Translations under genes and position numbers: made by a program
The notes under the pieces: model-generated
Told to the model about the DNA's origin: nothing
The model's database searches: none
The model's input: only the letters and a program-made list of their open reading frames with translations
Shown here: positions 19,433 through 22,801 of the stretch, in pieces
Layout: every line of letters starts with the position of its first letter
Numbering within the stretch: the first letter of the stretch is position 1
From: Rickettsia typhi
GTDB lineage: Bacteria > Pseudomonadota > Alphaproteobacteria > Rickettsiales > UBA1997
Length of the DNA stretch: 59,912 bases
Assembly: GCA_945875925.1 (NCBI GenBank)
Contig: CAMCME010000003.1
Location: 1-59,912 of the forward strand
Direction of reading: 5' to 3'

Positions 19433-20059
19433 CTATTTATCTTTGGATTTATCTTTTTGGGTAAAAGCTTTTTCTTCGCCAGTTAAAAGGCGGATAATAT
19501 TTTCTTTATGTCTGGCTAAAACTAGGATAAATAAAAACCAGCAAAGCCAAATCTGTTCAACTGGAGCTTCGTAATGTGAAGATAAAATGATTGAAGAAAA
19601 AATTGCGATTAGAGATGAAACTGAAGAAATTCTGAATATACAAAAAGACATTATCCAAAAAGCCGTAACCAAAAAACCAATTTTAAAATCTAGCGCGAAT
19701 AAAACTGCAATTGCGGTTGCAACACCTTTACCACCTTTGAAGCGAAGATAAACTGGGTAAACATGGCCCAAAACTGCAACGGCAGAAACCAGAACTAGAA
19801 ATAAATGTAAATGATCAATTTCAGCGAAGCTAAAGCGCGCTATAATAACCATCACCGCGCCCTTGAAGCCGTCTAATATTAGCGTGGCAAAGCCAAGTTT
19901 TTTGCCGACAACTCTGGCCACATTGGTGGCGCCGATATTTTTTGAGCCTAATTCACGGACGTCTTTCTTAGCAAAAACTTTGGCCAAAACCAAACCAAAT
20001 GGAATTGCTGAAACTGCGTAAGTGATAATTAGAAATAGAAACTGGTAAACAGGTGTCAT
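19433..20059 (-). CDS. plsY: Glycerol-3-phosphate acyltransferase
   Basis: GSKNIGATNVAR, GHVYPV, GGKGVATA, RHKENI. Confidence 0.96.
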   Translation of the reverse strand: MTPVYQFLFLIITYAVSAIPFGLVLAKVFAKKDVRELGSKNIGATNVARVVGKKLGFATLILDGFKGAVMVIIARFSFAEIDHLHLFLVLVSAVAVLGHVYPVYLRFKGGKGVATAIAVLFALDFKIGFLVTAFWIMSFCIFRISSVSSLIAIFSSIILSSHYEAPVEQIWLCWFLFILVLARHKENIIRLLTGEEKAFTQKDKSKDK

Positions 20060-20568
20060 TATTTAGGATCTTTATCTTTATTTTTTCTGAAAGCGTCTAA
20101 AGAAATCACTTTTGCAGATAAATCAACTGTTTCTCTCTTGGCATTTTTAGATTCAGATTTATTGGCCAAATTTGACTCACCAAAATCTTCACCAGAGAAG
20201 CCTTCAGCATCATCATAACTAACGCTGAATTTTAAGCCAAAATTCATTGACGGATCGGCGAAAGATGTAACTGATTTATAAGGAACAACCAGCTTTTCAT
20301 ATTTGCCGTCGAAGCTTAGAGAGACTTTAAAGTTATCTTGTTCAACAGCCAAACTTTTATACTGATATTGCAGCGCGATGGTCATTTCTTCAGGATATTT
20401 TTCCATCAACTTCTTAGGGATTGTAACGCCTGGAAAACGCACCAAAAATGTGATAATAAAATAATGTTTTCCAAGCAGACCAGTTTTTTCAACTTTTTTT
20501 AAAGTCTCGCAAATCACTGAGCGCATTGAGTTTTCGATAATTTCATCATAGCCGATTAGGTCTTGCAT
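20059..20568 (-). CDS. sspB: Alphaproteobacterial SspB (ClpXP adaptor for tmRNA-tagged proteins)
   Basis: HYFIITF..FPGV, YPEEMTIALQYQY, FADPSMNFGLKF, C-terminal KVISLDAFRK; directly downstream of ssrA. Confidence 0.9.
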   Translation of the reverse strand: MQDLIGYDEIIENSMRSVICETLKKVEKTGLLGKHYFIITFLVRFPGVTIPKKLMEKYPEEMTIALQYQYKSLAVEQDNFKVSLSFDGKYEKLVVPYKSVTSFADPSMNFGLKFSVSYDDAEGFSGEDFGESNLANKSESKNAKRETVDLSAKVISLDAFRKNKDKDPK

Positions 20569-20604
20569 GGAAATTTAAAAATGGATTTTGTTTAGATAAA
20601 AAAG

Positions 20605-20956
20605 TGCCGGTTTTTCTGTTGCAAGGAAAACCGGCAAACCCCGATAAAATCACTTATGCTAAGCAGCTAAAGCCACTGGAGCAAATTCGAAGTTATCATT
20701 AGCAAAATTGTCGTTTGCGTTTACTTTTTTTGAACGGATATCGCAATCTTTCGATTGTAATCGGCAGTATCTCAACCGAGCAAAATCAATCTCTTTACCA
20801 TGCATGTCGAAGCTAATTCACCCCCATAAAACTTTCGCAACCGAAAGTGAATCACTAATATTCCAGCGAATTAATTACGCTGTAGCTTTAGCGAAAGCGA
20901 ATGGTGGAGGTGTCGGGTACCGCCCCCGAGTCCATGTACATCTATTTCAAATTGAG
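20605..20956 (-). ncRNA. ssrA: Two-piece (circularly permuted) tmRNA; outer ends approximate
   Basis: The acceptor piece ends CACCTCC-A-CCA at 20902 with the alphaproteobacterial T-loop GGCGGTA. The coding piece starts GGGGGTG at 20825, giving a G3-U pair. Tag ORF 20718-20659 reads ANDNFANDNFEFAPVALAA*. Confidence 0.95.
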
Positions 20957-21196
20957 TTTATCACTATAGCCCCCAAACTTGCATTTGAGAACGCTGGTAA
21001 GTTTAAATTACGAAAAACTTTTTGACAAGCTTTCAAATCTCCCAAAACTTCATTGGCAAAGTTAATTTTCACCCATAAAATCAAAGAAAATGAGCTCTCA
21101 AAAATTCAATAAAATCTTTAGAAAATAAAAATTTTTCTTCTAGTTTGAATTCTTGCAAATTTTCCTTTTTCGAAATCCCCAAATAAAGTTCAAAAA

Positions 21197-22801
21197 ATGT
21201 CAGAAGAAAACCTATCATCTTGCGAGTCGAATCCCACCAATAGAAAAAAAGTTATCATTCTTGGCAGTGGTCCAAACCGCATCGGACAAGGAATTGAATT
21301 CGATTACACTTGCGTTCACGCTGCTTTCGCTTTTAGAGAAGCGGGCATTGAAGCAATTATGGTGAATTGTAATCCAGAAACAGTTTCAACAGATTATGAC
21401 ACTTCTGATCGCCTTTATTTTGAACCTTTAACAGCCGAAGACACCATAGAATTGATCAAAAAAGAAATGACCAATGGCGAATTGCTTGGAGTTAATGTGC
21501 AGTTCGGTGGTCAAACACCACTTGGTTTGGCAAAATTTTTACAAGATGAAAATATTCCAATTATCGGAACTTCTCCTGACATGATTGACTTGGCTGAAGA
21601 TCGTGATCGCTTCAAAAAATTATTACAAAAATTAGAACTTAATCAGCCCCAAAATCACATCGCTTATTCTTCAGGACAAGTAATCGAACAAGTTAATGAA
21701 ATTGGATTTCCTGTAGTTGTTAGACCTTCTTATGTTCTTGGTGGGCGAGGCATGGCGATTATTTATGATGAAGCTTATTTGATGAAATATTTAGTAGAAT
21801 ATTCTGAAGTTTTTGAAAGCGGCCCACTTCTGTTAGACAAATTTTTAACTGATGCAATTGAAGTGGATGTTGACGCTTTATGCGATGGAAAAGAAGTTTT
21901 TGTGGCAGGCATTATGCAGCATATTGAAGAAGCTGGGATTCACTCTGGCGACTCTGCTTGCTCGATTCCACCATTTTCTTTGTCAGAAAAAATTATAGAA
22001 GAAATCAAAAAAGCCACAGTAAAAATGGCTTTGGCCTTGAATGTGAAAGGCTTAATGAATGTGCAATATGCCATTAAAGATGAAGTGGTTTATGTTTTAG
22101 AAGTTAATCCAAGAGCTTCTAGAACTGTTCCCTTCGTGGCTAAAGCAACTAACACGCCAATCGCTAAAATTGCCTCTTTAATTATGGTTGGCAAAAAACT
22201 TAGCGAATTTAATTTGGTAGAAAAAAAATTAAATTATTTTTCTGTTAAAGAAGTAGTTTTCCCATTCGCTAGATTTAGCAATGTTGATACTATTTTAGGC
22301 CCTGAAATGAAATCTACTGGCGAAGTTATGGGAATTGACATTTCCTTTCCTTTGGCTTTTGCAAAAGCCCAAGTTGCTGCAGGATCAGGCCTTCCAACTT
22401 CAGGATTAGCCTTTATTTCAGTAAAAGATTCTGACAAAAAATATCTTCCAGAAATTGCTAAAAAATTATCTAGCATTGGTTTTAGCATTGTTGCAACTCG
22501 CGGCACAGCAAAACTTTTAGCTGAAAATGGCATTGCGGTTACAATCGTAAATAAAATTACCGAAGACAAGCCGCATGTTGTTGACATGATTGAAAGAAAA
22601 GAAATTTCATTGGTGATCAACACTACTGAAGGCGCACAAGCCACTAAAGATAGTTTTTCAATTCGCCGAACAGCTTTGATGAAAGGCATTACTTACAGCA
22701 CCACAATTTCTGGAGCGAGAGCTTTGGTTGACGCGATTGAAGCTTATAAAAACATCGATTGCTGCTTTGAAGTTCGCGCTTTGCAAGATTTAGGAAATTA
22801 A
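21197..22801 (+). CDS. carB: Carbamoyl-phosphate synthase large subunit, C-terminal half only
   Basis: Starts [29 protein letters not shown] (second ATP-grasp unit) and ends with the MGS-like allosteric domain; 534 aa. Confidence 0.92.

Follow-up and report, generated by a model that had tools for sequence, protein, structure and literature searches.

Why does the degradation tag of a tmRNA carry its N-terminal motif twice in a row, and what keeps both copies in place? The question is raised by a locus in the window, by which we mean the whole 59,912-nt stretch of DNA analysed here, from a genome of the order Rickettsiales. There the original prediction had read a tag of the form ANDNF-ANDNF-EFAPVALAA*, recoded at every codon and followed by sspB, and translation of the minus strand inside an intact tmRNA confirms the reading of the tag.

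The gene encoding this tag, ssrA, is a regular alphaproteobacterial two-piece tmRNA gene, with all the sequence-level features of its kind. It matches the Rfam family alpha_tmRNA (RF01849) with 170.1 bits against a cut-off of 50 (E 2.6e-47), above the gathering threshold and over the full length of the covariance model (positions 1-355 of 355), and the same locus also matches RF04321, tmRNA_permuted, with 127.6 bits against a threshold of 47. The parts of the locus, all on the minus strand, are the following:

20603..21032, minus strand: ssrA, two-piece (circularly permuted) alphaproteobacterial tmRNA gene (Rfam RF01849, RF04321)
20902..20912, minus strand: 3' strand of the acceptor stem, CACCUCC, plus encoded ACCA, end of the tRNA-like acceptor piece (from the sequence)
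20826..20901, minus strand: intervening segment of 76 nt between acceptor piece and coding piece (from its position; an insertion relative to the Rfam consensus)
20819..20825, minus strand: 5' strand of the acceptor stem, GGGGGUG, start of the coding piece (from the sequence and the Rfam alignment)
20719..20723, minus strand: resume-codon context UAAAC, directly 5' of the tag frame (matches the order-wide pattern)
20704..20718, minus strand: ANDNF copy 1 (GCA AAC GAC AAT TTT), beginning at the resume codon (from the sequence and its translation)
20689..20703, minus strand: ANDNF copy 2 (GCT AAT GAT AAC TTC) (from the sequence, its translation and the spacing comparison)
20659..20688, minus strand: remainder of the tag, EFAPVALAA, and TAG stop (from the translation)
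20598..20635, minus strand: 3' hairpin GCCGG...CCGGC followed by a U-run, end of the coding piece (from the sequence and the MFE and centroid folds)
20059..20568, minus strand: sspB, alpha-type SspB adaptor of 169 aa (Pfam PF04386; 34 nt downstream of the tmRNA)

The permuted order is evident from the acceptor piece, which ends in ...CACCUCCACCA at 20902, followed by the GGGGGUG at 20825-20819 and, further 3', by the tag frame. Read from the sequence, GGGGGUG pairs with CACCUCC and gives the acceptor stem a G3-U pair, the alanine identity element. The 76-nt intervening segment is presumably removed by processing, and the MFE and centroid folds agree in predicting a stable helix for the hairpin that closes the coding piece. 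The tag frame opens with a GCN resume codon, the GCA directly after UAAAC, and runs to GCU UUA GCU GCU UAG, a hydrophobic xAA end. In E. coli the context upstream of the resume codon has a role in setting the frame. The charged tmRNA should add one further alanine ahead of the peptide encoded here. ARAGORN reported no tmRNA in the window, against the 170 bits from Rfam, and annotation pipelines that use ARAGORN only may overlook this gene. Upstream of the tmRNA, on the plus strand at 21197-22801 of the window, lies the frame of a 534-aa protein with pre-ATP-grasp, ATP-grasp and MGS-like domains, which are those of the carbamoyl-phosphate synthase large chain, at about half the usual length of that protein.

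The frame on the minus strand at 20718-20659 reads GCA AAC GAC AAT TTT, GCT AAT GAT AAC TTC, GAA TTT GCT CCA GTG GCT TTA GCT GCT TAG and encodes ANDNFANDNFEFAPVALAA*. All five codon pairs of the two ANDNF copies differ, in the third base only, with no residue difference, and ANDNxANDN occurs just once in the whole 1.67-Mb genome (reversed-pattern control, 0). The recoding at every codon, to which the original prediction had drawn attention, therefore stands as far as the five synonymous differences go, but it is no special state, since in the first 15 tags of the same genus three to five of the five pairs differ, all five of them in 4/15. Among 40 genus members the first four pairs all differ in nine. 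The GCA/GCT pair is fixed or nearly fixed in these 40 (GCC appears once) and the TTT/TTC pair is fixed in the 11 of the 15 tags that have Phe at position 10, while the wobble bases of the Asn and Asp codons fluctuate within the genus; the complete recoding of the pair owes partly to chance. Copy 1 leans to codons ending in C, as in the widely conserved resume region, and copy 2 is more AT-rich. Codon 7 is AAT in all 82 family genomes that carry the doubled motif, and none of them has TTC as codon 5. In 55 of these 82 the two Asp codons have different wobble bases (GAC/GAT or GAT/GAC), where independence would predict about 38, with shared ancestry uncorrected, and the GAC/GAC pair is seen in only three of the 82; this discordance could come from shared ancestry, from the avoidance of an exact direct repeat or from a constraint on the RNA. 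As a cause of the synonymous differences, RNA structure is unsupported, the coding piece folding no better than shuffled sequence (z -0.23). In the predicted fold copy 1 is unpaired and copy 2 is paired only within a weak helix.

How widespread is the doubled motif? All of those first 15 same-genus tags start with ANDNFANDN[F/I/V/L], and a pattern search found ANDNxANDN in 40 of the 44 species of the genus, the other four being two species that gave no tmRNA match and two that are 80-84% complete. In the family the same search found it in 82/126 species and 10/17 genera, with none for the reversed-pattern control. Scanning a single genome for each prokaryotic species added at least 51 further tmRNA tags of the ANDNxANDN type and three probable ones, nearly all of them, among the matches listed, from freshwater MAGs titled 'Rickettsiales bacterium'. 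At the level of the order, two or more ND[ND] motifs are present in 106 of 182 tags (58%), 65 of 111 genera and 25 of 38 families, in a table obtained by automatic finding plus a dozen manual corrections, whose entries are uncertain for family f23 and for a few further genomes because their tmRNAs are divergent. The period between motifs is nine residues in 48 genomes, five in 19, seven in 18 and eight in nine, and within this sample period 5 is confined to the source family and one genus of another family. A stricter pattern, ANDN...NDN, is found in 99/182 tags inside the order, and outside it in only five of some 398 alphaproteobacterial genomes sampled from about 240 families. The original statement that alphaproteobacterial tags usually carry one motif is thus right for the class at large and wrong for the order to which this genome belongs, and the finding that the prediction had itself named as counting against it, a common doubling, holds within the order, whereas doubled motifs are rare in the rest of the class. 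On this distribution, the doubled ANDN is to be read as an old, conserved majority state of the order, ordinary for the lineage of the source genome.

Tags of other members of the order include ANDNNRSVGRLALAA, ANDNFVFANDNNSSANLVAA, ANDDFVAANDNVETAFVAAA and ANDNFAAEGDVAVAA, which we take to be those of Rickettsia, Ehrlichia, Anaplasma and Wolbachia, respectively, and the doubled motif was presumably already visible in long-public sequences of such well-known relatives. We found no discussion of doubled ANDN motifs in the searchable literature on the motif, on the Caulobacter tag and on Rickettsiales tmRNA tags, the primary SspB-alpha papers lying outside the scope of that search. Five small genomes from other orders of the class (G545, G380, G533, G450 and G577; 0.9-2.0 Mb; loci L284, L287, L289, L298 and L299) have two NDN motifs, ANDNAQFVAANDNFVVEGDIAIAA and ANDNFALVACNDNFVAPAAKAA being examples. 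The tags also vary at the other end. Within the genus (loci L016-L030) there are two classes, one of 19 residues ending in ...VA[L/V/I]AA, a ClpX-type degron, and one of 21 residues ending in ...ATKVAFA or ...ATRVAFA, and elsewhere in the family endings such as ...EEAFA, ...KKFAIA and ...KVAIA occur.

The conservation extends to the peptide and stops at the wobble base. Codons 1-9 encode the same amino acids in all 40 genus members, and five wobble positions are polymorphic (AAC/AAT, GAC/GAT, AAC/AAT, GAT/GAC and AAC/AAT); this restriction of the variation to wobble bases argues that selection acts on the peptide. When one representative of each of the 65 doubled-tag genera is compared, A-N-D-N is essentially invariant in both copies and the residues that follow it are variable. 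Judged by these comparisons, the doubled ANDN(F) is maintained by purifying selection on the peptide. The original view that there was no fresh slippage, and that the peptide was under selection, is borne out by the persistence of the doubling across the genus and much of the family with synonymous changes only.

Which of the two copies is the extra one? The first Asn of copy 1 lies 18 residues from the C-terminus and that of copy 2 lies 13. In the doubled tags of the order the second NDN stands 10-15 residues from the C-terminus (median 12) and the first at a median of 21, and in single-motif tags of the order the median distance is 13. Copy 2 is therefore at the usual distance from the C-terminal degron and copy 1 is the extra one, and the source tag is best read as a canonical alpha-type ANDNF-EFAPVALAA with one additional N-terminal ANDNF. 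The C-terminal LAA is a degron of the type that ClpX recognises. It had been suggested that the duplication relieves crowding between SspB and ClpX; copy 2 gives no help to this idea, as it keeps the canonical spacing, but copy 1 does lie five residues further from the degron. Hersch et al. in 2004 reportedly found that engineered E. coli tags with extra spacing were delivered better, and a copy 1 site further from the degron would fit that result.

The next gene on the same strand, 34 nt downstream of the tmRNA, is sspB, as predicted. Its 169-aa product carries the SspB substrate-binding domain PF04386 at residues 11-145 (E 1.9e-34), and its relatives in the PDB are the solved alpha-type adaptors 2NYS (E 1.6e-29) and the entries 2QAS/2QAZ, named 'SspB protein' (E 4e-24). 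A low-complexity linker is present, and the protein ends in ...ISLDAFRKN, which can be aligned with the ...VSLDAFRKK of 2NYS, its Agrobacterium homologue, and may be the ClpX-binding peptide of SspB. The neighbouring gene product is predicted to be a regular SspB-alpha. The genome also encodes SmpB (PF01668, E 3.7e-52, in an intact 148-aa frame) and a ClpX with a zinc-finger N-domain (436-aa frame), and because tmRNA, SspB, SmpB and ClpX are all encoded, the rescue and degradation pathway looks complete in the source genome.

The adjacency of the two genes is not peculiar to this genome. In 99 of the 160 genomes of the order in which both were located, sspB lies at most 1.5 kb downstream of ssrA in the same orientation, with a median gap of 118 nt, and these pairs span about 24 families; the writer and the reader of the tag are therefore genetically linked. 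Co-transcription of ssrA and sspB is possible, though in the source genome a hairpin and a U-run intervene.

Nearly all high-quality genomes of the order encode SspB (154 of 161). No SspB match was obtained in family f23, in the single sampled genome of family f31, in all seven genomes examined of genus g435 and in the one sampled genome of genus g442, the last two genera belonging to the source's own family (f1). The tags of these lineages are without ANDN (ADENAEFALAA, AEDNFAGQLAA, AEDNSDLALAA, AGLSNLGNKAVKAV..., AINTYEEDEMLAAA and also AGLSNLGNK...). Among SspB-positive genomes, 178/189 retain at least one ND[ND], and among genomes with no SspB match 14/19 are without ND[ND] and 5/19 have it, in counts of genomes that are not phylogenetically independent, so that the joint loss of SspB and ANDN amounts to about four events and not to 19. 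Of the five SspB-less genomes that bear ND[ND], four may reflect assembly gaps (81-84% complete, one of them with an SspB-positive sibling, or with the tmRNA at a contig end), and one, G110, which is 95% complete and keeps ND[ND] with no SspB match, is a real exception. Genus g434 has a few SspB-positive small genomes with a decayed single motif (AKKNF, AKDNF), and the link between SspB and ANDN is not absolute. Since lineages that lost sspB are also without ANDN, the motif appears to be tied to the adaptor: the co-loss in four lineages backs the proposed link, and it is suggestive of an evolutionary tie between ANDN and SspB-alpha, though short of a statistical proof. Loci of the SspB-less kind in f23, f31, g435 and g442 include L310, L312, L313, L315, L316, L326 and L350-L356, and within the source family their tags shrink to 11-12 residues.

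Single copies have also been lost where the adaptor is retained. In SspB-positive relatives copy 1 has decayed and copy 2 is kept in tags beginning AKKTF-, AKINF- or AKNNF-ANDN[I/V], ANENF-ANDNF and ANESF-ANDNE, and copy 2 has decayed and copy 1 is kept in ANDNF-ANVAIAA and ANDNF-ANNVAMAA. That either copy decays alone in such relatives is the pattern expected of two redundant sites. Two congeners of family f26 differ in the same complementary way, with ANNI-ANDNV-RFAPMALAA at locus L203 (G103) and ANDNF-ASNE-RFAPMALAA at locus L173 (G140), which suggests that an abutting double motif once existed in this second family too, and that either copy may be enough.

What, then, do the two copies do? 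The tag frame of this intact two-piece tmRNA carries an old, conserved doubled ANDN(F), apparently tied in evolution to SspB-alpha, and we consider it probable that both units act as docking sites for the adaptor. The main alternative, in our judgement rather unlikely, is that copy 2 is the only SspB site and that copy 1 is kept for trans-translation, its RNA being contacted by SmpB or the ribosome or its early residues acting in the exit tunnel, with the canonical tag displaced downstream. Such an arrangement would explain why the spacing of copy 2 equals that of single-motif tags, why copy 1 holds the conserved GCA AAC GAC AAY of the Rfam consensus and is richer in C-ending codons, why codon 7 is AAT in 82/82 genomes, and why genus g20 and the genomes G668 and G676 have a decayed copy 1 and an intact copy 2. 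However, lineages that are without SspB drift at the first four residues (ADEN, AEDN, ANEN, AGLS, AFAK), and since these residues drift freely without the adaptor, trans-translation needs no ANDN where the tag resumes; copy 1 is also free to vary at its wobble bases, and in other lineages it is copy 2 that has been lost instead (ANDNFANVAIAA). We think it improbable that the second motif is read by another factor (Lon, ClpAP/ClpS, FtsH or a periplasmic tail-specific protease) and widens the range of proteases acting on the tag. It is true that several proteases degrade ssrA tags (reviewed in PMC8138137), but both copies bear the same invariant A-N-D-N signature, both vanish where SspB is absent, and no candidate reader co-varies with them in the data gathered here.

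The second GCU could in principle serve as an alternative resume codon, as the original prediction had also proposed, and two tag lengths of 19 and 14 encoded residues would result, the shorter of which, ANDNFEFAPVALAA, is a perfectly canonical alpha-type tag. The upstream context speaks strongly against this proposal and leaves it very improbable: [U/C/G]A[A/G][A/G][C/U] stands directly 5' of the resume codon in 156/173 tags of the order, and here the first GCA is preceded by UAAAC, which conforms to this pattern, and the second GCU by AUUUU, which does not; moreover, in relatives with spacers of 7-9 residues the second GCN follows ordinary codons. Recent replication slippage, an assembly artefact or a functionless chance repeat would be suggested by nothing beyond the repeat itself, and any such origin has a practically negligible probability, as no wobble base is the same in the two copies, 82 species of the family share the arrangement in independent assemblies, and ANDNxANDN occurs once in the source genome with a control of 0; recent slippage and artefact are ruled out by this conservation.

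With these alternatives weighed, two redundant or cooperative SspB-alpha docking sites are the most likely explanation of the doubled motif. Both ANDN units would serve as docking sites, being either redundant or jointly raising the occupancy of the adaptor, which could remain on the tag at a greater distance from the C-terminus during its engagement by ClpX; the tagged proteins would then be handed to ClpXP. The spacing of the two sites bears on how this might work. The zero-spacer, 5-residue period is a local version found in the source family, most of the order having 7-9 residues, and, from what is known of the SspB fold, motifs with period 5 would be too close together for both of the distant grooves of one SspB dimer, and neighbouring ANDN sites may be mutually exclusive in their occupancy. 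Copy 1 also retains the pan-bacterial nucleotides of the resume region, GCA AAC GAC AAY, and some RNA-level constraint may act on it. As a tentative extension, to which we give less than even weight, most of the order may possess a natural two-site tag on which SspB-alpha protomers bind both ANDN units, either simultaneously, so that two adaptors would be recruited, or in a hand-off from the distal to the proximal one during engagement by ClpX.

Comparison with known systems suggests that the doubled motif of the source tag is a variant of a known tag architecture. The Caulobacter crescentus tag reads (A)ANDNFAEEFAVAA (PMC9393093). Both it and the source tag are encoded by a permuted two-piece gene (RF01849), start with ANDNF and have a hydrophobic xAA end, the motif-to-C-terminus distance being 12 there and 13 for copy 2 here, and both species have an SspB-alpha (the source protein matches the adaptor entries 2QAS/2QAZ of this system at E 4e-24) and a ClpX with its N-domain. 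The two tags differ in that the source tag has the extra front ANDNF, with 19 encoded residues against 13, and in the source genome sspB lies directly downstream of ssrA. Other members of the order, in family f33, have the tags ANDNFVFANDNNSSANLVAA and ANDDFVAANDNVETAFVAAA introduced above, presumably those listed for Ehrlichia and Anaplasma on the tmRNA Website. These tags too have two A-N-D-N units, with the second at the canonical distance, and SspB is present, but their periods are 7-9 residues with a hydrophobic spacer (FVF, FVA, VALVA), whereas in the source tag the spacer is zero and the copies abut. The E. coli system (AANDENYALAA, gamma-type SspB and ClpXP) shares an N-terminal adaptor-binding part, a C-terminal ClpX degron and an adaptor tethered to the ClpX N-domain; it differs in its single, shorter motif and in that the adaptor and protease sites abut. 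To our knowledge, sspB is unlinked to ssrA in E. coli.

Research on AAA+ proteases has long asked how one very short degron can serve an adaptor as well as a protease, and the answer has been used in the engineering of controllable degradation tags. Here a tag with two motifs has persisted for a very long time across the greater part of an order to which Rickettsia-, Ehrlichia- and Wolbachia-like bacteria belong. Its members offer a natural spacing series of 5, 7, 8 and 9 residues in which delivery by a second adaptor site could be compared, together with natural 'knock-outs', which are the lineages that have lost one copy and those that have lost the adaptor and both copies. If the two-site tag is real, the abutting 5-residue version would be its extreme case and could offset the weak-looking ...AFA C-termini found in part of the genus, and the clearance of rescued polypeptides in these bacteria would be more adaptor-dependent than it is in E. 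coli or Caulobacter.
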